The notes under the pieces were generated by a model that had not been told where the DNA came from, did not search any database, and saw only the letters and a list, made by a program, of their open reading frames with translations. Both the position numbers and the translations under genes were made by a program. A stretch of 64,000 nt of DNA from IMG/VR virus record IMGVR_UViG_3300012228_000001, positions 39,293 through 103,292 of that record. One strand, 5' to 3'. Source of the DNA: a virus. The first letter of the stretch is position 1, and every line of letters starts with the position of its first letter. Below are positions 8,822 through 61,506 of this stretch, piece by piece.

Positions 8822-8825
8822 TAAC

Positions 8826-10325: not shown

Positions 10326-10326
10326 T

Positions 10327-11134: not shown

Positions 11135-11148
11135 AAGGGGGGAGAAAC

Positions 11149-12951: not shown

Positions 12952-12953
12952 AT

Positions 12954-13677: not shown

Positions 13678-13683
13678 GGGGTC

Positions 13684-13872: not shown

Positions 13873-14152
13873 ACTAAGCGCAGATAAGCCGCTCAAGCGC
13901 GGCATACCGGGCACGCATTTCTACGTCGAACTTTTTGCCGGACATTTTACCATCAAGGCTAGAGGGTCGCGCAGGTCGGGCGCGCATTGTAATTGGGTGC
14001 TCGTTCTCAAATCCCCCGAAGCGGTGGTGCCAATGAGCGCACCGGCCAAGATACGCAACGGGCTGGAATACCTACGGTGGATCGTTGAGCGGCAGGAACG
14101 AAAGGGGAAGCGTGAAAACAATAGACGCGCCGATGCTAAAGAGAATCCTTGA
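13865..14152 (+). CDS. Hypothetical protein
   Basis: SD GGAGGG. Confidence 0.45.
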   Translation: MIELSADKPLKRGIPGTHFYVELFAGHFTIKARGSRRSGAHCNWVLVLKSPEAVVPMSAPAKIRNGLEYLRWIVERQERKGKRENNRRADAKENP

Positions 14153-14531: not shown

Positions 14532-14537
14532 TCCGAA

Positions 14538-15053
14538 ATGATGGCGAAGGCCAAAGCAGAATACCAGCGACGATGGCGACGAGCTAATCTTGATAGGTTT
14601 GCGAAATGGCAAAGAGATTATAGATCGCGGCATCCCGAAAAAGTACGAGCGCAGTTAAACGCTTGGAGATTGAAGAATCCTGAATCATACAACGCCATCA
14701 TCGCTCGCTGGCGAGATACGCATCGCGCAGAATGGCAAGCCTACAGCGCCAGATGGCGCAGAGAGAATGCCGCAGCTAGGCGCGAGCATGACTTGAAACG
14801 GCGGGCCGCAAAACAGAAAGCGACAATTCGGGACAGAAAGAAAATTGCCGCATGGATCAAGTCATGGCACCGAAAGCCGAAGGTCCGCTGTCACTGGTGC
14901 CGAAAGTATTTGCCAGGGAGAAAGTGCCAAGTTGACCATGTAATCCCGCTGTCCAAGGGCGGGCGACACACGCTCAACAATCTGGTCAAATCGTGCGGCG
15001 ATTGCAACATGCGCAAGGGCGCAAAACTAATTGTGAGGGTGAAGGGAGAGTAA
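14538..15053 (+). CDS. HNH endonuclease (paralog 1)
   Basis: CHWC..VDHVIPLSKGG.H..NNLVKSCGDCN; Arg-rich N-terminus. Confidence 0.9.
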   Translation: MMAKAKAEYQRRWRRANLDRFAKWQRDYRSRHPEKVRAQLNAWRLKNPESYNAIIARWRDTHRAEWQAYSARWRRENAAARREHDLKRRAAKQKATIRDRKKIAAWIKSWHRKPKVRCHWCRKYLPGRKCQVDHVIPLSKGGRHTLNNLVKSCGDCNMRKGAKLIVRVKGE

Positions 15054-15096
15054 GGCTTACTAACGGGCGCAACCAAGGGAAGGGAGAAAGATCGAT

Positions 15097-15480
15097 ATGT
15101 CTCATATCGCGAATTACGCAACCGAGATTCAGAACCCCGACTTGAACCTGCTCGCGCAGGCTTTTCAAGTCGTGGCGCAAACCCACGGCGGGCAAGTAGG
15201 CTCGCAAGTTTTCGAGTACAGCAACAGCTACGCGCAGGACGTGCAGCTCGCGCTAACCACGCCGAACTTCAAGCGCGGCATCGGTATCAAGATCGGCGCA
15301 AACGGCAAGCTGGAATTTGTCGGCGATCCGTATAACGCGCAAAAGCAGTGGGCGGAATTACAGCAGGAAATACTAAACACGTTCACCGCGCTCGGCTTTA
15401 ACGACGCGCTGCTTGAACTCGGCTACGCCGTCGATATCGAACAGTCTAACGGCGAGATTCAACTAACGGCCCTGGCGTGA
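15097..15480 (+). CDS. DUF1257 (Ycf35-like) protein
   Basis: MSH...TEI..L..A start, IGI....LEFVGD, GY..E..NGEIQL end; upstream of DUF2997 and AAA genes. Confidence 0.6.
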   Translation: MSHIANYATEIQNPDLNLLAQAFQVVAQTHGGQVGSQVFEYSNSYAQDVQLALTTPNFKRGIGIKIGANGKLEFVGDPYNAQKQWAELQQEILNTFTALGFNDALLELGYAVDIEQSNGEIQLTALA

Positions 15481-16130
15481 CCGAGCACCAGCGATTATTA
15501 GCCTGCCAAGCAACGGCAAGATGGCGCTCGGCGCATCGTGAGCAAGCCAGAGAAGCTACGCGGAAATGGCGACGTAAACATAGAAAGGGGGTTGAGGCGT
15601 ACCGCAAGTTGTATCGAGAGCGAAACCGCAGCGCGATTTTAGCTTACAATGCACAATATCGAGTCAAACATAAAACGCGGCGCAATAAGTATAGTCGTCT
15701 GTGGTATGCGACTTATGGGAAAGAGTATCAAAATCAATGGTATGCCAGAAATCGGCACAGGTGTTTAACTTCTGCCGCCAAGTGGCGCGTAAAGCATTCT
15801 GACCGCATCCTTAAATGGCGGGCTAATAACCCGCACATCTTACGACAGCAATCGATGAAACGTCGCGCCCTGAAGCGCGGTGCTGCCGTTGGGGATGCAA
15901 AGGCCATCATCGCCTGGATAAAATCGTGGCAACGCAAGCGATGGGTTAAGTGCCACTGGTGCCGCAAATCATTTCTTGGCAAAAAGTGTCACGCCGATCA
16001 TGTGATACCGCTGTCCAAGGGCGGGGCGCATTCGAGAAGAAATCTGGTCGTGTCGTGTGCGACGTGCAATCGTCGAAAATTTACTCTGTTACCTAAATCA
16101 TGGAAGGAGAAACGTTATGGCGGGTTTTAA
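15477..16130 (+). CDS. HNH endonuclease (paralog 2)
   Basis: CHWC..ADHVIPLSKGGAH..NLVVSCATCN. Confidence 0.9.
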   Translation: MTEHQRLLACQATARWRSAHREQAREATRKWRRKHRKGVEAYRKLYRERNRSAILAYNAQYRVKHKTRRNKYSRLWYATYGKEYQNQWYARNRHRCLTSAAKWRVKHSDRILKWRANNPHILRQQSMKRRALKRGAAVGDAKAIIAWIKSWQRKRWVKCHWCRKSFLGKKCHADHVIPLSKGGAHSRRNLVVSCATCNRRKFTLLPKSWKEKRYGGF

Positions 16131-16329
16131 GATTGTTATTCAGAAATCGGGGAATGTAATCACCGAAGCGGAAGGGTTCGCGGGAGAGACTTGTGTCACT
16201 CGTGCGGGCGAAATCATGGAAGCCCTTAAACGGCGCGGCATCGGCGTTCACCTGGATACTTTTCACATGAAAGACCCTTCGTGCGAAGGCGTCGTTCACT
16301 TGGCCGACGTTTTGAAAAGCGGGAAGTAG
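16117..16329 (+). CDS. DUF2997-family protein
   Basis: I.I.KSGNVITEAEGFAGETC motif; SD AAGGAG. Confidence 0.7.
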   Translation: MAGFKIVIQKSGNVITEAEGFAGETCVTRAGEIMEALKRRGIGVHLDTFHMKDPSCEGVVHLADVLKSGK

Positions 16330-16336
16330 TGCGGGC

Positions 16337-17059
16337 ATGAGCAAGCGGAGCAAGCAGCGCGAATACGACGCGAAGCGGAGATACGACCCTCACCGGATCG
16401 CTTCGCGTCGAGAACAGGGGCGGCGCTACCTTATCGCCAATCGGGACCGGATCACGAAATATCAACGCGAATGGGATGCGAACAACCGTGGGAAGAAAAG
16501 GGGGTATCAACGAAAATACTACGCCACGCACCGCAAGCAAATTAAAGCGCGTCGAGCGAATGGACGACCGGCTATGTTGGCTTACCTAAAGAAATATAGG
16601 GCGGCGCACCGCGAAGAATTTGCCGCTCGCGACGCCGCATATCACCGGGCGCACCCGGAAGCCAATAGGGCTGCGGTTCGCAGATACTTCAAGCGGCATC
16701 GAAGGCGGATCATGGCACGGATTAAACGCTGGAATGCGGCTCACCCGGAAAATGGACGCCAGCGAGTAATGCGATATCACGCCAGGAAGAAAGGGGCGAA
16801 GGTTGGCGACGCAAAGGCAATCGCAGCATGGATTGCATCGTGGCACCGCAAGCCGAAAGTTCGCTGCCACTGGTGCCACAAGTATTTTCCCGGCAAGTCG
16901 TGCCATGCCGACCATGTTGTGCCGCTGTCCAAGGGCGGGGCGCATGTACTCAAAAACTTGGTTAAATCGTGCGGCGATTGCAACAGGCGTAAAAGCGCGA
17001 AGTTGCCGCAGAAATGGAGAAAGGAAATAAAACATGGACTGGTTTCACGAACTCGCTGA
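16337..17059 (+). CDS. HNH endonuclease (paralog 3)
   Basis: CHWC..ADHVVPLSKGGAH..NLVKSCGDCN. Confidence 0.9.
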   Translation: MSKRSKQREYDAKRRYDPHRIASRREQGRRYLIANRDRITKYQREWDANNRGKKRGYQRKYYATHRKQIKARRANGRPAMLAYLKKYRAAHREEFAARDAAYHRAHPEANRAAVRRYFKRHRRRIMARIKRWNAAHPENGRQRVMRYHARKKGAKVGDAKAIAAWIASWHRKPKVRCHWCHKYFPGKSCHADHVVPLSKGGAHVLKNLVKSCGDCNRRKSAKLPQKWRKEIKHGLVSRTR

Positions 17060-18743
17060 CAAGTTCAGCGCGGGCATCGCGCATTGCTTTGTCATCCACG
17101 GCAACACGCGAGATTACATCGATGTCGACGACAACTATCACCCCATAGCGCAAGCGCTCGCTCACTTGTTCAAGAAGCGCGATGCGGTGATCTTTTACAA
17201 TCGCTCGGCGGGCTGGCGATTTCGAAACGACAAAGAGCGGACGCTAGTCAAGAACATGATTAGCTCCGCGAGCGGTCAGACGCCTAACCCGCTGGCGGCA
17301 GTGGCGGCAAAAGATGAATTTCCGAAACAACCCGCCGCCGCGATACCGATGTTTGAAAAGTTGCTCGGTGCCGACGCCAAGATTGCCGTTGTGGTTGAGT
17401 ACGCAGAATCAGTGTTCGCCATGCCCAAGTGGGACGCGGCGGGCGCGAACGGCGAGCTAGGCACGCAGATCGTGTCGGTGCTGCGGTGGGCCACGGATGC
17501 GGCCATCGCGTCAAAGAGTAACCCGATTATCTTGTTGTGCGCCGATAGCTTGAGCGATCTTCATCCGTCGCTCCGGTCGCCGGAAGCCAAGATCGAGCCG
17601 ATCTTTATTCCGTACCCGAAGCGCGAGGAACGGATGAAATTCATTCAGTGGTATCTCTTGCACAAAGAGATCGACATGGACGGCGTATCGCCCTCGCAGT
17701 TGGCGAACCTAACGGCGGGATTGGCGCTGACCATGATCGAAGATATTTTGCTGCGTTCTCAACAGATGGGCGGCTTGCAGCTCTCGTTTGTGAAAGAGCG
17801 CAAAGACGAAATCATCGCGGCTGAATACCAAGACGTGATTGAAATCGTCGAGCCGCACCACGGTTGGGAAGCGGTCGGCGGGCTGGATTACATCGAAGAT
17901 TTTTTCACGAAGAACGTAATCGATCCGATGGCGAACGGTGATTGTGCCCGCGTGCCGATGGGTGTGCTACTGCCCGGCCCCCCTGGCACCGGCAAGTCAA
18001 TCATTGCCGAAGCGCTGGCGAAAGAATCCGGCGTCAACATGGTCAAGTATTCGCCGGGCCGGTCGATGGGCAAGTTCGTCGGCGACTCGGAGAAAAACAC
18101 CGAACGGGTGTTTCGCGCAATCGAAGCCATCGCGCCTTGCATCGTGTTTATCGATGAATTGGACAAGGCGGTTCCCCATGAAGATGCGTATCAAGGCGAT
18201 AGCGGCGTGTCGTCTCGGATATTGCAGCGCTTGCAGGATTTCATGTCGGACACTAAGCATCGCGGGAAGATCGTTTTCCTTGGTGCGACGAACCGGCCTG
18301 ACCGAATCTCTGCGGCGATGAAGCGGGCCGGGCGTTTCGACAAAAAGATTCCGGTGCTTGCGCCGAATAGCGAAGCGCGGCACGGGGTTTTCAAGGCGTT
18401 GTTCGGTAAGTACAAGATCGCGTTCAAGGGCAAGCTGGACGAAGCGGTTAAACTCACCGAGGGCTACGTCGGCGCTGATATCGAAGCCATCGTTACGAAG
18501 TCTTGGGAGATCGCGCAGGACGACGGCAAGACGACCGTGACGGAAAAGCACTTGGCCGAAGCGCAGGACTGCATGTTGCCGTCCGTCGACGCCAAGCAAA
18601 TCGAGTGGATGACGGCGTTGGCAATCAAAGAGTGCAACGACCGTTCGTTGCTACCGCCAGATTACCGCAAGGCAATGACGCGGGAGAAAGTCGAGACGGT
18701 GATAGCAGAGTATAAGCAGCGCGAGGGACACCGCGAGCTGTAA
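17034..18743 (+). CDS. AAA+ ATPase (Ycf46/CDC48-like)
   Basis: Walker A GPPGTGKS, Walker B VFIDE, SRH ATNRP..RAGRFD; degenerate N-terminal AAA module. Confidence 0.92.
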   Translation: MDWFHELADKFSAGIAHCFVIHGNTRDYIDVDDNYHPIAQALAHLFKKRDAVIFYNRSAGWRFRNDKERTLVKNMISSASGQTPNPLAAVAAKDEFPKQPAAAIPMFEKLLGADAKIAVVVEYAESVFAMPKWDAAGANGELGTQIVSVLRWATDAAIASKSNPIILLCADSLSDLHPSLRSPEAKIEPIFIPYPKREERMKFIQWYLLHKEIDMDGVSPSQLANLTAGLALTMIEDILLRSQQMGGLQLSFVKERKDEIIAAEYQDVIEIVEPHHGWEAVGGLDYIEDFFTKNVIDPMANGDCARVPMGVLLPGPPGTGKSIIAEALAKESGVNMVKYSPGRSMGKFVGDSEKNTERVFRAIEAIAPCIVFIDELDKAVPHEDAYQGDSGVSSRILQRLQDFMSDTKHRGKIVFLGATNRPDRISAAMKRAGRFDKKIPVLAPNSEARHGVFKALFGKYKIAFKGKLDEAVKLTEGYVGADIEAIVTKSWEIAQDDGKTTVTEKHLAEAQDCMLPSVDAKQIEWMTALAIKECNDRSLLPPDYRKAMTREKVETVIAEYKQREGHREL

Positions 18744-18775
18744 TTATTAACGTGCGCAAGAAAAGGAAAACAGGG

Positions 18776-19801
18776 ATGGCAAAGATAGCGAAAACAGTTA
18801 AGCCCAATTGGGGCGTTGTGCTTAGTAATAAAGGGCTAGTCGTGTCGCTGTCGATTCGTTGGTTCAAAGGCCAACGGAAGCTGACAGCCGAAGATTTGGA
18901 TTTGGAAAAGCAGTCCGAGGCTGCGGAATTTCAAAAGCTATTCTCGCTCGGACAGAAAAGCATCATTCCGAAAGAAGTCTTCAACGAGTTTCATCGGATG
19001 GAAACGCGAGCACGCTCGCTGCTCGATAAATACTCGTTCGAGACGCCGTTCGGACAGTTCGTGACCTATGAGGCTTTTCCGATCTTCGAAAAGAAGATCG
19101 AAGAGATCGAGAAAGAGTTTCGCGAAGCGGTGCATGAAACGATTGCGAAGTTTCCGAAGTATCGCGGGCAAGTCTTGGCGGATTACGCCAAGCTGTCCAA
19201 CGACTTGTTTACCAACGGCAACAAGCGCAACAACACGGCGCGGCTCTTGAACGCCGTGCGCAACTCGATGCCGTCGCGCAACTCGCTGCACGAGTATTAC
19301 AGCTTCGAGTGGGAGCCGTTTCATATCGCGACTCCGAGCGAGCTAGTGCAGGAGCAGAAGAAGGCGACAGTGTTGGCCGAAGGCAAGGCGGTCAAGTATC
19401 AAGTCAACAAGAAGCTTGCCGAGAAGTACGAGAAAAAATCGGCGCACGCGATTGACTCGTTTATCAGCGGGTCGATCAAGAAGATGCGCGGCGTCGTCAA
19501 CGAACTGGTTGTCGCGGCGCTGAAATCAATCGACAAGAACGACGGCGTGCTGGTGCCCCGGCTGTCGACCACGCTCAAAGGCATGGTTGACCAGTTCAAG
19601 CTAATGAACGCTTGGGGCGATCAGGATATCGAAGCGAAGCTGCTCAAGCTGAAAGAGTATTTGCATGAGACCGATGGCGACGGCCCGAAGCGCACGCCGG
19701 AAGTCAAGGCAATGTTGAAAGAGTTGCGCAGCAATCTTAAAGAGCGGATCAGCGAAAGCCAGTTGTCGATCCGGCAAGTGCGGAGCGGAGTCGAGCTGTG
19801 A
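18776..19801 (+). CDS. DUF3150-like helical protein
   Basis: W.GQRKLTAEDL..SLGQKSIIPK motif; follows the AAA gene. Confidence 0.55.
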   Translation: MAKIAKTVKPNWGVVLSNKGLVVSLSIRWFKGQRKLTAEDLDLEKQSEAAEFQKLFSLGQKSIIPKEVFNEFHRMETRARSLLDKYSFETPFGQFVTYEAFPIFEKKIEEIEKEFREAVHETIAKFPKYRGQVLADYAKLSNDLFTNGNKRNNTARLLNAVRNSMPSRNSLHEYYSFEWEPFHIATPSELVQEQKKATVLAEGKAVKYQVNKKLAEKYEKKSAHAIDSFISGSIKKMRGVVNELVVAALKSIDKNDGVLVPRLSTTLKGMVDQFKLMNAWGDQDIEAKLLKLKEYLHETDGDGPKRTPEVKAMLKELRSNLKERISESQLSIRQVRSGVEL

Positions 19802-19980
19802 AGAAGCGGCCATATCCGAAATGGGTTCTCGCGGATTGCCCGAAGTCACGGTGCCCGGACTGCCACGGCACCGTGACGCTTCTTTCTAAAAACGACGCGA
19901 TGCCAGCATTTTATATTTGCTGGACTTGCAAGGCAGTTGCAGAAGTCGGCAGCGGGCCGGTCAGAAAGGAAACCGAATGA
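19798..19980 (+). CDS. Small Zn-ribbon protein
   Basis: CPDC..CWTC. Confidence 0.5.
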   Translation: MKKRPYPKWVLADCPKSRCPDCHGTVTLLSKNDAMPAFYICWTCKAVAEVGSGPVRKETE

Positions 19981-20198
19981 ACACTTGGACTGCGTATTAC
20001 TTCGAGAAGACTAACCGTGACGATAGACCCTATCATTGGGTAGCGCTCACCAACTGCGATTCTGGCAAACCGGACGGCTATATTTGCATCACGCAAGGCT
20101 TCGGCGATCTGCCAGAACTGCTTGATATTTTCGGCCATAAGAGCCGCGTCCATGAAGGGCGCGAGATCAGCGTGTTTGTCGATGGTGTGAAGCAATGA
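19977..20198 (+). CDS. Hypothetical protein
   Basis: ATGA coupling, SD AAGGA. Confidence 0.45.
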   Translation: MNTWTAYYFEKTNRDDRPYHWVALTNCDSGKPDGYICITQGFGDLPELLDIFGHKSRVHEGREISVFVDGVKQ

Positions 20199-20491
20199 CG
20201 AAAATTTATACACGAGGAAAAACACCGGAAGGTCGTTGGGGCCGTTGGATGTTGTGGGCGACGTTTGCCGTTCAAATCGATGCCGAGGCTTTTGCCGCAA
20301 CGATTCGAAAAACACACCCGACTTGGCAAGTGGTAGTCGGCAACAAACACGCGCCGCGACAGCATGAGTGGAACGTCGAGCTATCCGAAGATGGACAGCT
20401 TGAAGTAGTGCGAACGCGCACCGGCAAACAGGAAAGCGAGCATGAGCGGCGCATGGAGAAGTGGGCGCGGCAGAATTACGAAAGAGATTAG
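20195..20491 (+). CDS. Hypothetical protein
   Basis: ATGA coupling. Confidence 0.45.
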   Translation: MTKIYTRGKTPEGRWGRWMLWATFAVQIDAEAFAATIRKTHPTWQVVVGNKHAPRQHEWNVELSEDGQLEVVRTRTGKQESEHERRMEKWARQNYERD

Positions 20492-20493
20492 CA

Positions 20494-20700
20494 ATGACTC
20501 TCAACGAAATGCTCGACTTCGAGTTGATAGGCAACCCTGACGTGAGTCATGCGGTTGCCGTGAACAACTCGACGATCTTGGTCACGTTCAAGGATGGTTC
20601 GTTAGGTGCGCTTGGGCGCACCGACGAAGAGGGCTGGCAGTGGCTAGGCGGCGGGCCAATAGACGCCGCAATAATAATGGCAGGGGGTTTTAACGCATGA
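20494..20700 (+). CDS. Hypothetical protein
   Basis: Packed operon ORF. Confidence 0.45.
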   Translation: MTLNEMLDFELIGNPDVSHAVAVNNSTILVTFKDGSLGALGRTDEEGWQWLGGGPIDAAIIMAGGFNA

Positions 20701-21182
20701 ATAAATTTCAACCGGCTAACTACGAAGTCAACCCGGAAAAGTTTGACGCGATGGTACGCAAAGCGATGGAAGTGCATGGCATAGACCGGCAAGACGCCGA
20801 ACGGTTTATCAAAACCACGCTGTCCGAGCCGGTGTTTTTGAACGACACCTATCAAGTGAGCACGCGGGGATTTCGCTTGCCGGACTTTGGCGGCGATTGG
20901 GTTCATTTATCAATCAAGCGTATCGACCGCGAAGCGATTCGAGACTGGCGCGATCTGCAAGAGATCAAAAATCAGCTCGTCGGCGAAGAGAACGAGGGCA
21001 TCGAATTGTTCCCGGCTGAATCGCGGCGTGTCGATACAGCGAACCAGTACCATTTATTTGTGCTCAAGAAGAAAGGCCAAAAAATCCCCATCGGGTTTAA
21101 CGAGCGCTGGATAATGGATCACGACGAGCACGATCCGGTGACTCAAGTGAAGCAACGGCCCTTCAAGAGTGATGATCTATGA
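20697..21182 (+). CDS. Conserved phage protein (DUF7694-like)
   Basis: HLSIKR..WRDLQEIKNQLVG....IELFPAESR.VDTANQYHL motif. Confidence 0.7.
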   Translation: MNKFQPANYEVNPEKFDAMVRKAMEVHGIDRQDAERFIKTTLSEPVFLNDTYQVSTRGFRLPDFGGDWVHLSIKRIDREAIRDWRDLQEIKNQLVGEENEGIELFPAESRRVDTANQYHLFVLKKKGQKIPIGFNERWIMDHDEHDPVTQVKQRPFKSDDL

Positions 21183-21337
21183 GCCGTGATCTTTGGGTCA
21201 TGCTCGTTCTCGGCGGATTTATCGGCTTCCTTGTCGGCATGTACGTCGGCGTTGGGGTTGCCTTAAAACAAGAAAGGAAATGGCATGAGTATGATGCGGC
21301 TTCGGTGGAAAACGCCCGCGACCGCCTATCCGAATAA
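21179..21337 (+). CDS. Small single-pass membrane protein
   Basis: Read by hand: MSRDLWVMLVLGGFIGFLVGMYVGVGVAL..; ATGA coupled. Confidence 0.4.
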   Translation: MSRDLWVMLVLGGFIGFLVGMYVGVGVALKQERKWHEYDAASVENARDRLSE

Positions 21338-21965
21338 GCGGGTCGGCAAGGCGCGGATTTTCAAATATCGGTGCCCGGTGAGGGACACCTATTGGGCTGA
21401 AGGCATGAAGGGCTATCTGTATTACCGCTTCGAGCCGGGACACAACAGGATCACGCAACTATCGATCAACGGCCAATGTTGGATGACCGATATGCCGCCT
21501 TACTTTTGGTCAATGGAACACTTTGCCGAGCAATCGCACGGGCATGTGCTCGTCGCGGGCTTGGGGCTTGGGCTGGTGGTTCACTGCCTTGCCAAGAATC
21601 CCACGGTCGAGAGTATCACGGTAATCGAAAGAGAACCGGACGTGATAAAACTGATTAAGCCGCTTTTACCGAAGGATATGAGTATCAAGATCATCAACGC
21701 CGATTTCTATGAATGGATGGAGCGAGACCGTTTACAGCGCGACGTGGTGATTTGGGACTTGGGCTTGTGGGGCTTGCCCGAAGACGGGGGCGAGCGCCAC
21801 GGCTGGCCGGAAGTTTTCATTATCAAGTTCAAGGTGGCCGACAAATACGGCGATGATTGCAAGTGCTTCCGTCACGGCCTCGACCGCGATCCGGCTGGCG
21901 CAGAGTTTATCAAAACGGAACGCTATAAGAGGGCGCGTGAGAGTTTATATCCGGGGGTTATATGA
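21285..21965 (+). CDS. SAM-dependent methyltransferase-fold protein (spermidine synthase-like)
   Basis: GHVLVAGLGLG, ITVIERE.DVI, IINAD motifs. Confidence 0.7.
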   Translation: MSMMRLRWKTPATAYPNKRVGKARIFKYRCPVRDTYWAEGMKGYLYYRFEPGHNRITQLSINGQCWMTDMPPYFWSMEHFAEQSHGHVLVAGLGLGLVVHCLAKNPTVESITVIEREPDVIKLIKPLLPKDMSIKIINADFYEWMERDRLQRDVVIWDLGLWGLPEDGGERHGWPEVFIIKFKVADKYGDDCKCFRHGLDRDPAGAEFIKTERYKRARESLYPGVI

Positions 21966-21987
21966 GCGACTTTTTACAGGAGAGAAC

Positions 21988-22596
21988 ATGGCAACTTCCA
22001 AGTGGTTGAAGTGGTATCGAGAACACATGAAAAAGCCAAAAGTTCGGAAAAAACGGAATGAGTATTTGCGACGCTACCGGGATCGGCCCGAAGTTCAACA
22101 GCGGGGGCGTGCCTATAGAACTAAAGAAGAAGTTAGAATTCGAAACAACGCAGTACATAGAGAAAGCCGAAGGCGGACTCGTCTTTCGGTTCTCTGTCAT
22201 TATGGTGGCAACCCGCCTAAATGCGCTTGCTGCGGGGAAACTATTGTGGAATTCCTTTCCATCGATCATATCAATGGCAGACCACCTGAACATCGTGGCA
22301 AGAATCGAGCGGTCGTTGGTGGCTATTGGCTATGTCGATGGCTAATCCGCAATAAGTTCCCGAAGGAGTATCAAGTCCTTTGCCTCAATTGCAATTTCGC
22401 CAAGGGGCACTATGGCGGGTGTCCACATAAAATCGGAAGTTCCTATAACAAGTTTCGAAAGTTCGAGAAGAAAATATGGACGCGAACCGGACGCCGGAAT
22501 AAAACTGGACTCGACTGGAACAATTCTAATGATCGTCGGAAGTATCATCGGGAATGGGCGCGTCGTACTAGGGGCTACAAGACGAAACGAGTTTAA
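21988..22596 (+). CDS. HNH endonuclease (separate subfamily)
   Basis: CACCGE..LSIDHING..QVLCLNCN; SD AGGAG. Confidence 0.8.
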   Translation: MATSKWLKWYREHMKKPKVRKKRNEYLRRYRDRPEVQQRGRAYRTKEEVRIRNNAVHRESRRRTRLSVLCHYGGNPPKCACCGETIVEFLSIDHINGRPPEHRGKNRAVVGGYWLCRWLIRNKFPKEYQVLCLNCNFAKGHYGGCPHKIGSSYNKFRKFEKKIWTRTGRRNKTGLDWNNSNDRRKYHREWARRTRGYKTKRV

Positions 22597-22634
22597 CTTG
22601 AAAAATCAAAGTGGAGTGAAAGAAAATACTTAAA

Positions 22635-23165
22635 ATGAATCCGAGAATCGCAAAACTAAAAACATACAAGGGCATCCCGATTGTTTTCTTCGCGACAATC
22701 GACAAGAAAGGCATTCCAGATTTCAAAGTAACCGACGAAGAGAAGCGGATGCGCTGCGGCAAGGAACATCTGTGCTGGATTTGCGGCGAACCGCTCACCA
22801 TGCCGATCTGCTTTATCGGCGGGCCGCACTCGGTTGCGCAAGGAACTTTTACCGATGGCCCCATGCACGCCGAATGCGCCGCCGACTCAATGGAAATGTG
22901 CCCGTGGCTTTTGGGACGCATGGACTATGCGCCGCCTGAATCGTTCAAGATGGACCGGCACAACAGGCCGGTGCGGTTTGTGACTGGTGCGGCGAGACCG
23001 GAAATGGTCAAGTCGCCTGACCGTGTTGCGATCTACAAGTGCTTGGGGTTTGACATACTAATCTTGCCGCTACAAGGCGGGCGCTGCGCTTGGTTCTTCA
23101 AAGCGTTCACTGCGCTATCCGTAGATTTTCGGGATCGGATTGCGCCAACTGCGAAAACAGCATAG
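22635..23165 (+). CDS. Conserved hypothetical Zn-binding protein
   Basis: CWICGEPL..FIGGP..PMHAECA..CPWL. Confidence 0.6.
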   Translation: MNPRIAKLKTYKGIPIVFFATIDKKGIPDFKVTDEEKRMRCGKEHLCWICGEPLTMPICFIGGPHSVAQGTFTDGPMHAECAADSMEMCPWLLGRMDYAPPESFKMDRHNRPVRFVTGAARPEMVKSPDRVAIYKCLGFDILILPLQGGRCAWFFKAFTALSVDFRDRIAPTAKTA

Positions 23166-24075
23166 CCATCCGATCCAATACAAATTCCTGATAGGCTTCC
23201 GGGTAGCCTCTCTTACTAGCGTTCTCAAGGCGGGCTAGGTTCATCAAGAATCTTTCTTGGTTGGACCTGCCGCCTTGGAACGCTTTTTTTATGTCCGGTT
23301 TCCGGTTCAATTTCCTGATCGCGTCTTTCGCGATTGCAAAATCATCGAACACCCGCGCCACCCCTATCCCAAGCTTCTCCGCAATATCCCGGTAACTCAT
23401 GTTGTCGACGGTTTTCATTTTGTAAATTTTAAGCTGCCGTTTGGCGAGACTCACATTTTTCCAAGTCGTGCGCGTCTTCTCTTTTTTCTTCAACTCGTCA
23501 CGGGCGTCTTTTAGCTTGATGTTGAATTCTTTTTCAATCTCGTCAAGCAAGTGATCGCGCTGCGATAGCGCGTATGCCTGCTCCATCATGCTTTCAATGC
23601 TGTTATTTTCGTCGGGGAGTGTTTCTGGTACTTCGGTGACTTCTGGAAAGCGGTCAATAATTTTCTGGCGCTGCTCGTCGGTTACTTCCCTATGGATCAA
23701 GTCGTATAACGTCCGGGTGCCCGTCATGCCGTGCCCGCGCTCCCATTGAAGATGCTTCAAGATACCGAACTTGATCGACGGCCTGATAAAATTCTCAATC
23801 GGCCCCGACTTTGGAGTATAGCGTCGCAACGCATGCAGGGCTTCGTGCATGCCAGCTTCGGCGGCGTCGTCGAACGATTGAAAGTGAACCCCTTTGGCTT
23901 TCTGATACGCGACGCTGATCGCCGACCATCTTTCGATATTGGGATAATGCTTCTCAAACAGTTTTTTCACACGCGGTGGGAACTTCGTGTTGCGATTATA
24001 GCCGCTGACCAAGCCGGTCCTGCGCCTGTATCCGCGCACGCGCTGAAAAGCCTTAACGCAGATCGCTATTATCAT
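23107..24075 (-). CDS. Phage RNA polymerase sigma-70-family factor
   Basis: Region 2-like DDAAEAGMHEALHALRRYTP..F..PSIKFGI; region 4 HTH MSYRDIAEKLGIGVARV. Confidence 0.75.
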   Translation of the reverse strand: MIIAICVKAFQRVRGYRRRTGLVSGYNRNTKFPPRVKKLFEKHYPNIERWSAISVAYQKAKGVHFQSFDDAAEAGMHEALHALRRYTPKSGPIENFIRPSIKFGILKHLQWERGHGMTGTRTLYDLIHREVTDEQRQKIIDRFPEVTEVPETLPDENNSIESMMEQAYALSQRDHLLDEIEKEFNIKLKDARDELKKKEKTRTTWKNVSLAKRQLKIYKMKTVDNMSYRDIAEKLGIGVARVFDDFAIAKDAIRKLNRKPDIKKAFQGGRSNQERFLMNLARLENASKRGYPEAYQEFVLDRMAMLFSQLAQSDPENLRIAQ

Positions 24076-54698: not shown

Positions 54699-55286
54699 TC
54701 ACGGCGCTGGCGGATTGCATGGCGGGGTCGCCGTATTGAGATTCACCCACGAACCAACAAAGCGCCACCACGTTTTCGACCGACCGAGCACATGGACTGT
54801 CCCGTTGCACAATGCCAGCTTACTGCCGCTCGCATCGAACACGCGGGCATTATTGCGCAGCACCCAATAATTGCCCGGCGTTGCTAAGTTTTCCGATCCT
54901 AAACTCCACACGTCGGCGCGGGTCACAACGTTCGATATGTTCGCGGCTGGCGGAACGAACGTGCCATCGGGAGTCTGCGCTCCCGCCAGTGTCTTGCACG
55001 CCGCATTCGAATACGCGGACGCGCCTACCGCGTTAAACGCGGCCACGCGGTAACAGTAGGTGTTTGGCAATATGCCGTCCTGTAGCGTGCTGTCGCTGTA
55101 AGCCGTGATGTTCGCGCCTATCGCTGCGGCCACCACTTGCCACGGCGAACCGTTCAATTGCCGCTCAAGCACAAAGCCGTCTTCGTTGTTCGCGTTGTCG
55201 GTCCATGCAAGATCGGCGGTTGCGGCCAATGCCATGCGCCCACAAAGCATGAGCCCGAGTAAAATAATCAATGGCGTTTTCATCAT
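54699..55286 (-). CDS. Fibronectin type III domain protein with signal peptide
   Basis: LAWTDNANNEDGF.LER..YCYRVAAFN.VG.S.YSN; N-terminal ..ALA|A. Confidence 0.75.
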   Translation of the reverse strand: MMKTPLIILLGLMLCGRMALAATADLAWTDNANNEDGFVLERQLNGSPWQVVAAAIGANITAYSDSTLQDGILPNTYCYRVAAFNAVGASAYSNAACKTLAGAQTPDGTFVPPAANISNVVTRADVWSLGSENLATPGNYWVLRNNARVFDASGSKLALCNGTVHVLGRSKTWWRFVGSWVNLNTATPPCNPPAP

Positions 55287-57121
55287 AACGTCCAGTTATC
55301 GTAGCGATCCTTGCCTTTGTTTACGACAACCAAAAACTTTTCCTTGGCGCTCTTGGTCGCCGCCTGCGCTATGTTTTGCTGCCCCTGCTCGCCTGCGGCC
55401 ATGCCGTTGTTCTGCCGTCCGGCCATCGCGCCGCCGCCCTGACTCTCCTGATCGCCGCCCTCTTCATCGTCGCCAAGATTGTTGAGCACGTCCTGCGGTA
55501 AACCCATCTGTTGCGCTTGCCCCCCCATGCCCATAGCCTCTTGTTGCTCTTGCATTAGCTTGCCCTGATAAACCTGCATAAGCACGGGGTTGAGCGGCGC
55601 GTTGCCCAAGTCTTCGTCTTCCATTTCGTCGTCGCCTAGCGCGTGCCGCATTTCGTTTACGGTCCACGCGAGTTTCTTCATTTCGAAGATGTTCTTTTGC
55701 TCTTCGGGATGAAGCCCCATGTACCGCATGACATAGCAAGGATTGTAGACCGGGATGATAAACTCGTTGTAGATTCCCTCAATCCAAGACGCCAGCGGTT
55801 CAAGCCCCTTGTCTCTGGCGTGCGCCAGTTTCTCGCTGGTATCTTCGCCGCCAAGTGGCGTTGACGACCGCGACGTAAAAGCGTCGCTGTTGATCTCTTC
55901 AGGCGACATGCCCCATATCGCGCAGATAATGCTCGTCAAGAAAGTCATCCACTTGGCGAACATCATTTCGTTCACTTCGCCATCGATCTTAGTGAACGTG
56001 CTTGATGCCTCTTTGTTCGGTGAAACGAACACGGGTAAACGCCAGCGCTGCGCCGGGCCTGATAGGCTCGCGTTCCACATACGCTTGAAGTCGTTTAACT
56101 GGCTCTGATCGAAGTTGCCGAATACCGTCAAGATGCCCCGTGGAATGTTGTTCCGATCAAAGAACGCTTGGTTGTACGTCAATGCGTTCAAAAAGCCGGT
56201 CACAAGCTTGACGACCATTTCGGTCTCGCCGTAGCCGTAGCGGCTCGCTTGAATGTCGGTGCGCGGGTTGCGCACTTCGTAGATGATATCCTGCGGCGTG
56301 TAAAACGAGCACACCATATCGTTGTAAATTTGCAGCGCAATAATCCGGTCATCGCCAAGATAGCCCTCTTCATGCGCGATGCGGATGGTCTCGGCGGCAA
56401 TGTTGTAGATGCCGCTGATCTTTGAACCGTCCTGTGTCATTTCGGTTTCGATAGGCGCGGCGTCGCAAGTCAGTGTGTCGCGCACAAGCTTGGCGATAAA
56501 CGTCGACATATTATCGCGGTGCTTGATCCACTTGCGCTTGCGCGGGTCGGGTTCATCGCCGCAATTCATTATGAACGTTTGGATATCCTCGGCGGTTTTC
56601 TTCTCTTCGTCGGTAAGCCTGTCGCCGACTTTTTTGTGCTTGGGAATACAGACAAAACCTAGCGGGTGTTCGTCCTGCGAGTCGTAGGCGCATGACATGC
56701 TGTTCAGTTGCCGAATGCGCGTGATGATCGCTGCGTTCAAGATCGGACAATGCTCGACCATCATTTTAAGCGCGGTGAATCCAAAGGGTGAAAGTTTCTC
56801 CACCCAATGATTCATGTGACCGCCGCTGATAATGCCGAGTTCGTCGATATACAGATACGACCGATGCGATCCCTTGCGGTGCATGACCGGCAAGACACCG
56901 GGCGGGTTGGCCTTGACGGCCTTCTCAACAACCGCGTCGGTTGGCCCCATGCCGGTGCGCCATTGCCCTATCTGCGGGACTTGATAAGTGCCGTCCACAG
57001 ACTTCTGCAACTCCAATTGCTGTTGGAGCATGAGCACTTCTTCGGAACGAACGACGCCTGCTTTCGCTTCGTCTAAGAACTCGCGAAATAGTTCGTTATT
57101 CACGTCGCGCCGTTCAGCCAT
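55283..57121 (-). CDS. Portal protein
   Basis: YEVRNPRTD..YGYGETE, YNQAFF..PRGIL, ICAIWGMSPEEIN, GLEPL, TVNEMR; ATG 57121 has an SD (ORF is open to 57196). Confidence 0.9.
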   Translation of the reverse strand: MAERRDVNNELFREFLDEAKAGVVRSEEVLMLQQQLELQKSVDGTYQVPQIGQWRTGMGPTDAVVEKAVKANPPGVLPVMHRKGSHRSYLYIDELGIISGGHMNHWVEKLSPFGFTALKMMVEHCPILNAAIITRIRQLNSMSCAYDSQDEHPLGFVCIPKHKKVGDRLTDEEKKTAEDIQTFIMNCGDEPDPRKRKWIKHRDNMSTFIAKLVRDTLTCDAAPIETEMTQDGSKISGIYNIAAETIRIAHEEGYLGDDRIIALQIYNDMVCSFYTPQDIIYEVRNPRTDIQASRYGYGETEMVVKLVTGFLNALTYNQAFFDRNNIPRGILTVFGNFDQSQLNDFKRMWNASLSGPAQRWRLPVFVSPNKEASSTFTKIDGEVNEMMFAKWMTFLTSIICAIWGMSPEEINSDAFTSRSSTPLGGEDTSEKLAHARDKGLEPLASWIEGIYNEFIIPVYNPCYVMRYMGLHPEEQKNIFEMKKLAWTVNEMRHALGDDEMEDEDLGNAPLNPVLMQVYQGKLMQEQQEAMGMGGQAQQMGLPQDVLNNLGDDEEGGDQESQGGGAMAGRQNNGMAAGEQGQQNIAQAATKSAKEKFLVVVNKGKDRYDNWTL

Positions 57122-57198
57122 CGGCGCACCCTCGTTGGTGATAATCGCAAATTTGTCGGAGAAGTTCATCCGGGCCTTTAAGGCATGGACGGACAAGT

Positions 57199-57465
57199 CT
57201 ACGGCGCTGATCCGCCGACCGGCTCGTCAAACCGCTGCCGTTTTCGAACGTAAAAAACTTCGATATCGCTGTCGACGCGCTGGACGATTTGCTCGCAGTC
57301 TGCCGGGTCAAGGTCGCCGTACTTGGCAATGAACGCAGCTAGAATTTCTTCACGCTGCGCGAGGATACGGCGTCGACGTTCGATGGCAAGATTGTAGATT
57401 TGCGCGGCCATATAAGACAACTCTCGGCTTGAGTCCAATAACGGGTTGCAGGCGAATGGTGACAT
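57199..57465 (-). CDS. Hypothetical protein
   Basis: ORF between the promoter cluster and portal. Confidence 0.45.
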   Translation of the reverse strand: MSPFACNPLLDSSRELSYMAAQIYNLAIERRRRILAQREEILAAFIAKYGDLDPADCEQIVQRVDSDIEVFYVRKRQRFDEPVGGSAP

Positions 57466-57507
57466 GGTTATGGCGGCTCGATAATTGCTAAGACTGCTTA
57501 GTCCTAC

Positions 57508-57536
57508 GCAATAGCCGCAAACGGCGGGTTTGTCAA
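57508..57536 (-). promoter_or_regulatory. Sigma70-like promoter
   Basis: TTGACA-N17-TATTGC. Confidence 0.45.
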
Positions 57537-57630
57537 ACTAAAACGCAGCCGATTAGCCAGATGACGCCGACAACTCGAATCCAGAAAATGACTTCGAGTA
57601 GCCATGCGCGGTCGTCCTGTCGGTCCATAA

Positions 57631-57725
57631 ACAAAAACGCCACCGGAGTCCCTCCGATGGCGCTTTTGCTCCGATGCATTCCCAAGCAACGGATTGAACC
57701 GGGATGGCAAGATCGGCGGTTCAAT
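57631..57725 (-). ncRNA. Candidate three-hairpin small RNA
   Basis: Starts at the predicted +1 with a 9-bp hairpin (ATTGAACCG/CGGTTCAAT), has a second hairpin, and ends in a 10-bp hairpin plus TTTTT. Confidence 0.6.
57633..57662 (-). terminator. Intrinsic terminator
   Basis: CGCCATCGGA-GGGAC-TCCGGTGGCG-TTTTT. Confidence 0.7.
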
Positions 57726-57729
57726 AGGG

Positions 57730-57818
57730 TTTATAGCTTAGGGTCTTTTGCTTGTCAAGAATTCGATAGAGCACCAGCCCGCTAGGTTGGTTCTAGCTTA
57801 GGGCTTTTGGGCTGTCAA
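57730..57818 (-). promoter_or_regulatory. Tandem sigma70-like promoters
   Basis: TTGACA-N17-TATAAA (57758-57730) and TTGACA-N17-TAGAAC (57818-57790), with similar spacers ending CCCTAAGC. Confidence 0.65.
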
Positions 57819-58099
57819 GGCGATCTTGGTTTCTCGCCGTTCGGCAAACAAACAAGCCATTGCTCGGTATATTTCTTCGCGGCGGCTTCGCACTCTTTCA
57901 ACGTATCGAAGAACAGCCCGGACTTGTGCCATAGCGTCTGTCCCGCTTGCGGTTGTTTTGAGGGCAACGAATCGGCTGCGGGGCCACTGTGGAGTCCACC
58001 GCGATACGTCCATCCACCTTGATCGTTCTTGGTTACAACTGTCGCGCTCCACAAAACCCAATAGAGCAAGACGATTGCTCTGCCGCGTTTGTGGTTCAT
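57815..58099 (-). CDS. Hypothetical protein
   Basis: ATGA coupling; F.T.KEC..A..CLP motif. Confidence 0.45.
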   Translation of the reverse strand: MNHKRGRAIVLLYWVLWSATVVTKNDQGGWTYRGGLHSGPAADSLPSKQPQAGQTLWHKSGLFFDTLKECEAAAKKYTEQWLVCLPNGEKPRSP

Positions 58100-58401
58100 A
58101 GCTCCCCCTCTCCGCGCCGGATGCTGCGGATGCTCGGCGCGTCGTCATCGCTGTCGTCACGGCTCTTTCTCGGCATGACGTGGCTCAAGGTCATCGTCCG
58201 ATAGTACAGGTCGATCATGGAATACTTCGGGTCGAACTTCGCTTCGATCACATAGAACAGTTCGTCGCCAACTTTAACGACGTGCGCCTTGTCGTCGCGC
58301 CGTAGATGCTGCTTTGCTTCGGTCCATTCGGCCTGACTCATGCGCCGGGACAAGACCTTGCCAAGATCGTAAATGCGCTGGCCTATCGTGATGCGGTTCA
58401 T
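58096..58401 (-). CDS. Hypothetical protein
   Basis: MNRITIGQR..; coupled overlap. Confidence 0.45.
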   Translation of the reverse strand: MNRITIGQRIYDLGKVLSRRMSQAEWTEAKQHLRRDDKAHVVKVGDELFYVIEAKFDPKYSMIDLYYRTMTLSHVMPRKSRDDSDDDAPSIRSIRRGEGEL

Positions 58402-58580
58402 TTCCGAAACGCCATGCAAGACTTGCACGCTAAACAACGCGGCGCGTCGTTGCCACGCTGCACCCCATGATGATCGCGCCGGTGCCCGCACTTGCAAACG
58501 TCGGCGCTCGCGGGCTTGAATATCTCGTAGAGCGTTTTGGCCTTGGCCTTACGCTTACTCTTGGCTTTGCGCTTTTTCAT
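58398..58580 (-). CDS. Small basic Cys/His protein
   Basis: CKCGH..H..C..C.SC.AF. Confidence 0.5.
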   Translation of the reverse strand: MKKRKAKSKRKAKAKTLYEIFKPASADVCKCGHRRDHHGVQRGNDAPRCLACKSCMAFRK

Positions 58581-59439: not shown

Positions 59440-61506
59440 TTACACTGGAAGAAATTCTTCGCATTTCGGATCAACGGCCATGATTTTCTGATTGTTCCAA
59501 GTCATTCCCTGGCACCGGCCATTGGCGCACGTCGGGTCGTCGGGGTCGTCCGGCTTGAAGTTACAGCACGCCCCACAAGTCTCGCGCACGATGCGCCCGG
59601 CGCTCGGCAGCACGGCCCTGATTTGAACCATCTCGGGATTGTTCTCCCGCAGGTCTTTCGCCGCTTCGGTCTCGGCCTTTGCCTCATGGTCCATCTCGGA
59701 CGTGAGCAAGCGGGTTGTCCCGTAGGCGCGGGCGATGGCAACATCGCAACACATATTCGCATAGGCGAAATGCGGGTCTTCGCTGCCGATCTTTTCCACG
59801 CGGTTCGTTCGCTTTTCCTCTTTCTCATTCTTACGCTCGCTGATTAGAGCTATTCTTGTCAAGTGTTTTGTAAACAGCGAGGCAAGATTATCCTCTTGAA
59901 ATCGCCCGTGGATTATCCGGCGCTGTAGCAGCGGATGGCGCTGCGGGTCGGGCATGCGCAAATTGCTGTCTTGAATCTTGCCCATAGCGTAGGACATGAA
60001 CCGATACTGCTCGGTTCTGACAACGTATTTATTGCGTGCCTCGTCGCTTGTCTTGCGGATAGCCTGCGGGTCGCTTGTGTCGCGGTCCATCCAACGCAGC
60101 ATTTCGCCCTGCATCGCTTGCGAATACTCGACAACGAAAACACGTCCAGGGAAGTTTTTGGCAAACTTAAACGCCTCGTTGAAGTTCGGCAGCGCTTCAA
60201 GACTCGCGAACCGGATGCCGTATTCGTCCATGAGTTCCGCGCTGCGCTTGAACGGGTCTTCATCCTCGGTCCATTCCAGATGCTTCAAACGTTCGTAGCC
60301 GCCCGGCAAGCGCTCTTTGATTACATGAACGTTCAAGTTCCCCATGTGATCCAAGCCCATGTAATTCTCGCCGTCGCGCTTTTGCCGCAAAGATAAATTT
60401 CTCGGCCAATCGTTATCCTGATAAATCTTTTTAAGCAGTTCCAGCGTGATCGGTATTTCGTTGGGATTGCTATACGGCCTGCCGAGTTTGCGATTGTAAA
60501 AGTTTTGCCTGTCGTGACTATCTTCCCATGCGCGAAGCATTTCGTAGGGATGGACGCGCTTCGATATACACTGCGACCAAGTGAAGCCGGGCACTAAGCT
60601 GGCGTCGTTGTGTTTGATGTACCGGCCATTCCACGGCTCAAGTAAGTCAGTGTCGCAATGCGGGCAACGGTAATACACGCGCCCATCGCGGGCCTGCGCG
60701 ATAACGTTCGGCCATTCGTCGGCCAAGTCGATCCCGTCGCTGCACTTGCAATCGCTGTGAAAATGGCGCTGATCGGTCTCCTGATACCATTCGTCAATAT
60801 CCCCTTCGGGCCAACGCGGCGTCGATACCTTGCCGACTATCTTTAGCTTCGAGGCCGATATGCGCTCTTGAGTTTTCTCAATCTGCCCCCGGCTCATTCC
60901 CTGCACTTCGTCGAACACCAGCGCATCAAGCGGCATGGACTCCGTTCGCATCGTTTGTTGCTCGCGGCCCTGACTCTGATTCATGCCGGTGTATAAAAAC
61001 ATGATCGTTGACAGACCAAGTCGCCGGATCGCCTTTGAGCCTATATCGCGATGACCCTGCGAGTCTTCCATGAGTTGCAGCAAGTCCGGGTTAGACTTGA
61101 TTAACGATTTGTAGCGTGTGTCGCTAAAGGCATAGGTCGTGAATTCATCCGGCAAGTAATAGCCCAAGTTCATGTTGAAGCGCAGCGGCATGTAAATGCC
61201 AAGCCACATGAGAAAGAAAATGCTTCCGCCTGCTTGTGCAGGTTTACGCAGGACGAATTCGTAGCCAAATAAATCCTCGATATCGGTCGGCGGCGCTTGA
61301 TAGATCGGTTCGAGATATGGAAAGTCCGTGAAGTTAAACGTCTCACGGTCAATCCAAAGTCCAGAACCTAGCGCCCAATCGTGGAACGATTGTTCACGCG
61401 CTCGGCGCTGCAACTCTGGCGTCTGTGATCGCTGGCTGTTCTGTCCCAAGTAATCCAGAATCCCGCTCAAGAACGCTTGAGAGAAGTCTAAGCCTTGCGA
61501 TTGCAC
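59440..61506 (-). CDS. terL: Terminase large subunit (GpA-like)
   Basis: RKPAQAGGS Walker A, LVFDEV Walker B, STP, CxC/CPHC, NRKLGRPY, nuclease MGLDHMG..DPHF. Confidence 0.92.
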   Translation of the reverse strand: MQSQGLDFSQAFLSGILDYLGQNSQRSQTPELQRRAREQSFHDWALGSGLWIDRETFNFTDFPYLEPIYQAPPTDIEDLFGYEFVLRKPAQAGGSIFFLMWLGIYMPLRFNMNLGYYLPDEFTTYAFSDTRYKSLIKSNPDLLQLMEDSQGHRDIGSKAIRRLGLSTIMFLYTGMNQSQGREQQTMRTESMPLDALVFDEVQGMSRGQIEKTQERISASKLKIVGKVSTPRWPEGDIDEWYQETDQRHFHSDCKCSDGIDLADEWPNVIAQARDGRVYYRCPHCDTDLLEPWNGRYIKHNDASLVPGFTWSQCISKRVHPYEMLRAWEDSHDRQNFYNRKLGRPYSNPNEIPITLELLKKIYQDNDWPRNLSLRQKRDGENYMGLDHMGNLNVHVIKERLPGGYERLKHLEWTEDEDPFKRSAELMDEYGIRFASLEALPNFNEAFKFAKNFPGRVFVVEYSQAMQGEMLRWMDRDTSDPQAIRKTSDEARNKYVVRTEQYRFMSYAMGKIQDSNLRMPDPQRHPLLQRRIIHGRFQEDNLASLFTKHLTRIALISERKNEKEEKRTNRVEKIGSEDPHFAYANMCCDVAIARAYGTTRLLTSEMDHEAKAETEAAKDLRENNPEMVQIRAVLPSAGRIVRETCGACCNFKPDDPDDPTCANGRCQGMTWNNQKIMAVDPKCEEFLPV

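Follow-up and report, generated by a model that had tools for sequence, protein, structure and literature searches.

Among described systems, those closest in logic to the locus reported here are c4 of P1/P7 and CI of P4, phage RNAs of about 77–100 nt whose exposed loops pair with short repeats located elsewhere on transcripts of the same phage, which leads to a translational block and to polarity. Both RNAs are processed from the operon that they control, both govern one antirepressor or early operon, and both belong to temperate elements. To our knowledge, almost every phage RNA that regulates genes of the phage itself is either cis-antisense (OOP, sar and aQ) or operon-internal (c4 and CI) and governs just one switch gene, in a temperate phage. 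Among bacterial RNAs, RsaE and RNAIII of Staphylococcus, which are chromosomal and host-encoded, use unpaired UCCC or C-rich loops to pair with the G-rich ribosome-binding sites of several mRNAs. ColE1 RNAI is a cis-encoded antisense to the replication primer. The lambda 6S RNA, for which we know of no trans target, is produced at PR′–tR′. For c4 of P1/P7, the loops have been described to pair with repeated targets and to cover the ribosome-binding site (PMC12197685), terminated ncRNAs derived from 5′UTRs have been reported in virulent Pseudomonas phages (PMC10914365), and T4 RegA is an example of a phage translational repressor (PMC3014915).

The unit described here was found in a 64,000-nt window, i.e. 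the whole stretch of DNA analyzed, which corresponds to bases 39293–103292 of an IMG/VR virus record. Like c4 and CI, the candidate RNA has a loop complementary to short repeated targets over ribosome-binding sites of its own phage; unlike them, it has its own promoters and at least five separate predicted targets located 39–50 kb away, in a phage in which no lysogeny genes were found. It resembles ColE1 RNAI in size (about 100 nt) and in its stem-loop/stem-loop/terminator layout, but not in being a cis-encoded antisense to a primer. In function, it would be comparable to T4 RegA, since one phage factor would address many early/middle mRNAs of the same phage at their start regions and shut off their translation; RegA, however, is a protein for AU-rich start regions, whereas the factor proposed here is a base-pairing RNA. 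Finally, RsaE and RNAIII, from Gram-positive bacteria, pair by a similar chemistry; the candidate RNA has no sequence relationship to them, and its predicted pairing extends across start and second codons. Our tentatively preferred reading is that the unit, as judged from its sequence, may be a trans-acting antisense small RNA (sRNA) that blocks the initiation of translation on a set of transcription units of the same phage. The first-pass annotation of this DNA had proposed an antisense RNA that silences several early genes at once; its observation was confirmed by our analysis, and its interpretation is, overall, partly supported.

Genome organization

The source record is a 103,292-bp IMG/VR virus genome with a 123-bp terminal overlap and is rated complete. 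Most phage genes lie on the minus strand, the exceptions including two blocks that are inverted relative to them and thus read from the plus strand. The landmarks relevant to this work are as follows (all coordinates are those of the window):

59440–61506, minus-strand block: terminase large subunit gene
55283–57196, minus-strand block: portal gene
7346–23165, plus strand: larger of the inverted blocks, referred to below as the island
23107–24075, minus strand: gene for a 322-aa protein with weak sigma-factor signals, a candidate phage sigma factor for the island promoters

The minus-strand genes also encode a 2770-aa virion protein, a tail sheath protein, baseplate proteins, lysin-type tail proteins, a DnaC-like loader and a RecE-like exonuclease. 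The island contains many small ORFs annotated without function, together with genes for a ParB-like protein, an HNH endonuclease, an AAA+ ATPase and a DUF3150 protein. A tyrosine integrase and a ParA-type ATPase were looked for in the phage genome and neither was found, so that a lytic lifestyle is the simpler reading; the quiescent or plasmid-like state evoked in the first-pass annotation is unsupported. The label 'early' that it gave to the target genes was a guess; these genes sit in the inverted plus-strand island, with its non-sigma70 motifs.

More specifically, a promoter-like pair of non-sigma70 type heads the gene blocks of the island: it consists of AAAACGGAACAC..CGGGAATA followed, about 25 nt further on, by ATTATTAAC(N)GGCGCAA. 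The copies are:

7263–7287, 9080–9104 and 14488–14511, plus strand: AAAACGGAACAC..CGGGAATA, with TATTAAC boxes at 7312, 7798, 9130 and 18743 and a variant at 15057

The promoter class of the target genes differs from the sigma70 consensus of the unit. The protein encoded at 23107–24075, which reaches 25.2 bits for Sigma70_r4_2 (cut-off 25.7), 16–17 bits for Sigma70_r2 and an E-value of about 1e-4 for PHROG sigma families, possibly serves this island promoter class.

A promoter-to-terminator unit between the terminase and portal genes

The unit occupies part of a non-coding gap, about 330 nt long, that separates an ORF of 94–120 aa (end at 57798) from the ORF (start at 57465) preceding the portal gene. 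Its elements and their immediate surroundings are, in the direction of transcription:

57788–57818, minus strand: P1, an upstream promoter-like copy (TTGACA-N17-TAGAAC) that overlaps the stop codon of the preceding ORF
57730–57758, minus strand: P2 promoter (TTGACA-N17-TATAAA), with the −35 box at 57758–57753, a 17-nt spacer and the −10 box at 57735–57730
57693–57725, minus strand: stem-loop 1, with a 9-bp stem (57725–57717/57701–57693) and the 15-nt loop CCGAUCUUGCCAUCC (57716–57702)
57666–57692, minus strand: weak second hairpin (UUGCUU/GAGCAA) or linker, with only 3 + 3 bp in the minimum-energy fold
57629–57667, minus strand: intrinsic terminator (57667–57634, with the U tract at 57637–57629), with a long G+C-rich stem, a GGA loop and a U5-G-U3 tail
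57533–57628, minus strand: 31-codon ORF (P0001) with a hydrophobic C-terminal half, starting 4 nt past the U tract, within the junction TTTTTGTTTATGGAC
57505–57536, minus strand: P3, a promoter-like site (TTGACA-N17-TATTGC) ahead of the ORF starting at 57465 and of the portal gene

The promoter, the stem-loop, the second hairpin and the terminator that had been picked out in the first-pass annotation are thus all in place. The second hairpin is present as a sequence but is weak: the minimum-energy fold assigns its 3′ arm to an extended terminator stem, and it is not robust because of this competition. P2 is the sole match to TTGACA-N15-19-TAnnn[AT] in the whole 103-kb genome, and its transcription start is predicted at about 57725–57722. 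P1 is a diverged direct repeat of P2, both carrying CCTAAGCTA, which is found nowhere else in the genome. With a folding energy of −24.6 kcal/mol, the terminator is the strongest terminator-like hairpin in a genome-wide scan, and the fold of the whole unit reaches −49.6 kcal/mol (z = −5.2). The duplicated, genome-unique consensus promoter and the strongest terminator count in favor of the sRNA reading. Searched against PHROG and Pfam, the ORFs overlapping the unit matched no family, which speaks for a non-coding nature. Altogether, the discrete non-coding promoter-to-terminator unit previously proposed is borne out in silico, and, at the level of sequence prediction, it displays what characterizes a trans-acting base-pairing sRNA, namely its own promoter and intrinsic terminator and no coding capacity. 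Regarding the 31-codon ORF downstream of the terminator, its status as a gene is uncertain: it could encode a small membrane protein made from read-through transcripts alone, or it could be a chance ORF.

Stem-loop 1 by itself folds with −10.5 kcal/mol, and the opening of nucleotides 16–25 costs 3.8 kcal/mol. Its loop is the reverse complement of GGGATGGCAA, and the stretch available for pairing, UCUUGCCAUCCCG, spans 57712–57700; the last pairing base of the native RNA sits in the stem, which counts against the sRNA reading. Note that 15 nt of the 5′ stem and loop of the unit (AACCGCCGATCTTGC) recur in the same orientation at 55207–55221 (minus strand), inside the ORF directly downstream of the portal gene, with no similarity in the flanks.

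A sibling unit in front of the head protease gene

A second unit of similar layout is present in the window:

7090–7240, minus strand: sibling unit, in which a TTGACA promoter precedes a three-way-junction RNA (about 115 nt; z = −4.5) and its strong terminator

The tail of the sibling terminator runs straight into the ATG (7087) of a gene for a 286-aa head protease-like protein, which has no Shine-Dalgarno sequence, so that the head operon seems to need terminator read-through. The junction TTTTTGTTTATGGAC, composed of the U tract and ATG GAC, is identical over 15 nt at 57623–57637 and 7082–7096 (both on the minus strand), the only two occurrences in the genome, and may be a common translation-start or processing signal after terminators. 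Tested for complementarity to start regions, the sibling RNA gave a best value of −7.9 kcal/mol, with none at or below −11.5.

The sibling unit counts against the sRNA reading in that it suggests another primary role for such units. Besides a role in trans, or in place of it, the 57758–57629 unit may have that of a terminated late leader, or it may form the 3′ end of the terminase operon. We consider it unlikely, though by no means negligible, that the unit is mainly such a leader or operon end of the late (structural) programme and that its loop match is functionless in trans; according to this logic, which would deserve the same unlikely-but-serious standing, the short RNA would stop at the terminator unless RNA polymerase is made termination-resistant, as at lambda PR′–tR′. 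The shared layout of the unit at 7240–7090 (minus strand), whose TTTTTGTTTATGGAC junction leads into the protease ATG, the presence of the same junction in front of the 31-codon ORF, and the placement of the unit, which lies where the terminase gene block ends on its 3′ side and whose terminator may simply end that operon, are consistent with this explanation, as is the finding that ncRNAs produced by premature termination in 5′UTRs are common in virulent Pseudomonas phages (PMC10914365). The arrangement is also that of a lambda-type late leader, with a strong host-type promoter, a short terminated RNA and a terminator directly upstream of late/structural genes. Unlike in lambda, however, the terminator is followed by a further promoter-like site, P3, that could drive the portal operon alone, and the searches turned up no Q-type antiterminator family: neither PF06530 nor PF03589 matched while their controls were positive, the search with PF06323 being uninformative as its control was silent. 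Moreover, a leader role leaves unexplained why the loop contains the exact reverse complement of a repeated start-region motif, and it is compatible with a role in trans, as neither excludes the other. Should the unit be merely a terminated late leader, the finding would be ordinary.

The loop is complementary to the start regions of island genes

Exact plus-strand copies of GGGATGGCAA are found at 8247, 9168, 11789 and 18773, the fifth, at 57701, being the RNA gene itself; all five lie on the plus strand, as required for pairing with a minus-strand RNA. Copies with one mismatch include those at 7336 and 7820. The predicted pairing sites are the following:

7336–7346, plus strand: GGGGTGGCAAG, 11 bp with one G-U, at −10 to +1 of GTG 7346 (phrog_5203 protein); TATTAAC box at about 7312–7314
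7821–7831, plus strand: GGATGGCAAGA, 11 bp, at −16 to −6 of ATG 7837; TATTAAC box at 7798
8247–8256, plus strand: GGGATGGCAA, 10 bp, covering the Shine-Dalgarno region and ATG 8250 or 8256 (about −9 to +1 of 8256)
9167–9177, plus strand: CGGGATGGCAA, 11 bp, at +6 to +16 of ATG 9162; TATTAAC box at about 9130–9132
18773–18782, plus strand: GGGATGGCAA, 10 bp, at −3 to +7 of ATG 18776 (DUF3150 protein); TATTAAC box at about 18743–18745
11788–11798, plus strand: exact 11-nt match inside the ParB-like coding sequence, not over a start codon
33228–33241, minus strand: predicted target at a minus-strand gene start (ATG 33238), with 9 bp (GGGATGGCAG), a bulge, then AGAT (4 bp)

The pairing lengths announced in the first-pass annotation for 7821, 8247, 9167, 18773 and 7336 were all confirmed; its list of five sites was correct, but had missed the ParB site (11788–11798) and the minus-strand gene start (33241–33228). 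In keeping with its central claim, the loop can pair in silico with a common motif inside the ribosome footprint of five plus-strand genes, as the motif falls in the −30 to +20 window of the starts at 7346, 7837, 8256, 9162 and 18776. The complement of the loop is the union of the target variants, i.e. CGGG... as at 9167 and ...CAAGA as at 7821, and the two internal variants among the predicted targets (7336 and 33232) are A-to-G changes opposite a U, which keep a G-U pair. Part of the motif corresponds to generic start-region sequence, a Shine-Dalgarno-like GGGA and ATG GCA A (Met-Ala), and this counts against the sRNA reading. The motif copy at 11788–11798 is out of frame with the ParB-like gene and heads a 15-codon mini-ORF.

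Four of the five target sites lie 22, 22, 36 and 28 nt behind a repeated (AT)TATTAAC promoter-like box, mostly followed by GGGCGCAA, and the longer motif AAAACGGAACAC..CGGGAATA precedes two of these four target-associated boxes. The motif thus belongs to a promoter-leader module, yet the 10-mer is exact throughout at varying distances: 22, 22, 28 or 36 nt from the TATTAAC box and −17 to +16 relative to the start codon. The shifting position of an exact 10-mer points to selection on the 10-mer itself.

Could GGGATGGCAA be instead a signal at the DNA level, for example the operator of a regulator downstream of promoters, or an orientation-specific motif? This is improbable in our view, and the same low probability holds for the corollary that the copy in the unit is one more site, with the flanking 9-bp inverted repeat being part of a protein-binding palindrome. 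A DNA signal would account for the placement of each promoter-associated copy, including the one behind P2, at about +10 to +30 from the putative −10 box, for the presence of the motif with all four island TATTAAC boxes and for the single DNA orientation of the exact copies. It is at odds with the exact copy deep in the ParB coding sequence, with the lack of a box at 8247, with the non-palindromic nature of the motif and with a motif-to-box spacing that varies by 14 nt. In addition, the sole internal variants are wobble-compatible transitions, and RNA loops are typically displayed by just such a hairpin, placed between promoter and terminator. A Chi-like orientation-specific motif is unlikely, since the copies cluster at gene starts within 11 kb. 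We also discarded a relic plus-strand start region at the locus as a sufficient explanation, since there is no plus-strand TATTAAC box upstream and the plus-strand ORF is out of frame.

Exact complementarity exceeds chance expectation

In the genome, GGGATGGCAA has 14 matches with at most one mismatch, compared to 4.5 expected. For the exact 10-mer, the four additional plus-strand copies compare to about 0.1 expected; three of them are at start regions, where two copies with one mismatch are also found. Using 130 crude gene calls to define start regions, we counted contiguous Watson–Crick pairs to the native 19-nt loop region: six start regions can form at least 9 bp with it, and four at least 10 bp. 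After shuffling of the 19-nt loop region, the mean counts were 0.24 and 0.05, respectively, and none of the 300 shuffles reached the native counts. Furthermore, when about 206,000 windows of 19 nt from both strands are ranked by their matches of at least 10 nt to start regions located elsewhere, the loop stands alone at the top, the runner-up windows being either antisense to start regions themselves or coding repeats. Repeated 10-mers are common in this genome, with 678 strand-specific 10-mers occurring at least four times. It is nonetheless very unlikely that the loop bears by chance the reverse complement of the 10-mer common to four start regions.

Predicted binding energies are not distinctive

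Targets were ranked with a windowed scheme of our own, which adds to the duplex energy the opening energies reflecting accessibility; a ranking by full-length RNAduplex was dropped, as it yielded over-long, meaningless duplexes. In the genome-wide target ranking, a check suggested by the first-pass annotation, five of the top six among the 130 start regions are island genes, with energies of −14.7 to −11.5 kcal/mol, all through nucleotides 10–25 of the RNA, the best total energy among the targets being that of the 7821 site (−14.7). Among about 1,540 internal coding windows, just three that are genuinely internal reach the scores of the island targets. As a control, the 15 loop bases were shuffled (composition-matched) with the remainder of the RNA unchanged (n = 37). 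Five of the 37 loop shuffles gave at least the native count of start regions at or below −11.5, and three matched or beat the native RNA for the count at or below −13 and for the top-six mean. In other words, 8–14% of the C-rich loop shuffles do equally well, and the native energy ranking is unexceptional; any C-rich loop binds the G-rich Shine-Dalgarno regions of this phage. One shuffle that recreated UGCCAUCCCC wholly within the loop far outscored the native loop. The two seed tests therefore diverge, the exact-match test being strongly positive and the accessibility-corrected energy not significant versus shuffled loops; thermodynamic target prediction alone would not have singled out this RNA.

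These controls bear on the possibility that the RNA is real but that its C-rich loop is broadly anti-Shine-Dalgarno-like or acts on host mRNAs, the five sites being the best of many weak matches. Shuffled C-rich loops do reach similar predicted binding to many start regions, and, by eye, the loop CCAUCCC resembles the anti-Shine-Dalgarno sequence CACCUCC. We nevertheless give this explanation little credence, since the exact 10–11-nt matches are far above shuffle expectation.

Proposed mode of action of the candidate RNA

Starting from the sequence anatomy and the exact complementarity, both established above, we infer the following scheme of transcription, in vivo pairing, repression and timing for the trans-acting antisense sRNA that we favor. 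The host sigma70 RNA polymerase would transcribe a non-coding RNA of about 95 nt from tandem strong promoters, ending at the strong intrinsic terminator; a start at P1 would lengthen it to about 155 nt and leave stem-loop 1 as it is. With its consensus sigma70 promoter, the RNA may be made from the onset of infection onwards. The 15-nt loop and the first stem base would present UCUUGCCAUCCCG, which would nucleate a contiguous helix of 10–11 bp with (C)GGGAUGGCAA(GA), a sequence located in the short leaders of the putative targets or in their first codons. The putative targets would be the promoter-proximal island cistrons starting at 7346, 7837, 8256, 9162 and 18776, and possibly the gene starting at 33238 and the site inside parB. 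As the pairing lies wholly within the ribosome footprint, binding should block 30S loading. A secondary effect may be exposure of the mRNA to decay or to Rho-dependent polarity, by which whole transcription units would be lowered.

Pushed one step further, the RNA might be a counterpart of T4 RegA: an sRNA located inside the structural block would silence each island unit through a 10-nt tag. This we regard as a possible but somewhat doubtful extension, and we are equally reserved about its details, in which duplicated consensus promoters would serve the sRNA while the island units would depend on different, possibly phage-sigma-dependent, promoters. If it holds, a lytic myovirus would shut off translation genome-wide by means of a sequence-addressed circuit. 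More generally, if the preferred reading is true, the unit would be a stand-alone trans sRNA that addresses several separate units of a large lytic phage via a common leader tag, and phages would apply the logic of bacterial multi-target sRNAs to their own temporal programme. It would also provide a simple and portable repressor-and-tag pair for phage engineering and suggest a function for the promoter-plus-terminator 'ncRNA candidates' of many phage transcriptomes.

RNA families and relatives

Although c4 and CI are the closest systems in logic, membership of the C4 family is excluded by the covariance model and by the context. The C4 model (RF01695) gave no hit at the gathering score (45 bits), and none at E ≤ 10 in the region or the whole genome; as to context, the unit, located between terminase and portal genes, is equipped with promoters of its own, and its predicted targets are 39–50 kb off. 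The RNAI model (RF00106) scored 22.4 bits (gathering score 47; E = 0.022 in a 181-nt search), below its threshold, with an alignment spanning the whole unit, and the locus has no replication-origin context of the kind implied by a cis-antisense to a replication primer. The Burkholderia sRNA ncS01 (RF02865) scored 23.1 bits where 58 are needed, its alignment being mostly on the terminator. Altogether, Rfam searches at permissive E-values returned only sub-threshold RNAI, ncS01 and rteR.

A similarity search of 57000–58500 against the phage collection retrieved nothing alike, and nhmmer and blastn searches of the unit against 24 portal-linked loci gave no match. Scanning IMG/VR for the exact pattern of the 18-nt loop returned two matches, both in unrelated coding sequence. 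Among the portal relatives, identity is 66–67% at best in IMG/VR, JGI metagenomes and GTDB genomes, and none of them has the unit; the closest portal by protein search (P0004, 79% identity) is on a 50.5-kb Logan contig. In IMG/VR, no relatives of the DUF3150 target gene were found, and a scan for the island promoter motif gave none. The motif GGRTGGCAA occurs in one or two copies in each of three relatives' records, which is the chance level. Scans for 19-mers complementary to start regions yielded nothing useful in one relative (G001), and in a second, distant one (G002) their matches stem solely from an GCGATCGC-type repeat. The absence of a homologue of the RNA or the motif among the relatives searched counts against the sRNA reading. 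That the unit has no function at all, its promoter- and terminator-like sequences not being used as a unit and the complementarity being a by-product of repeated start-region sequence, would agree with this absence of detected conservation and with the 678 repeated 10-mers, but it is hard to credit, as it requires an improbable coincidence, within 130 nt, of a duplicated sole consensus promoter, the strongest terminator and top-ranked complementarity.

Two further observations were made on the relatives. In L002 (66% portal identity), the stretch 3640–3990 directly upstream of the portal gene contains a hairpin and a strong terminator whose loop reads CCGCCAUC, together with a TTGACA promoter and an acidic ORF of 30 codons; this positional analogue was not counted, since the flanking genes are non-homologous and the promoter is doubtful, and the L002 contig is without an island. 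A terminator in L007 was set aside as well, being bidirectional and in a different context. Finally, the distant relative G002 (L045–L049; portal identity 44%; 93.5-kb record) is rich in an GGCGATCGCC-type palindromic repeat, which dominates any repeated-10-mer statistic in that genome.
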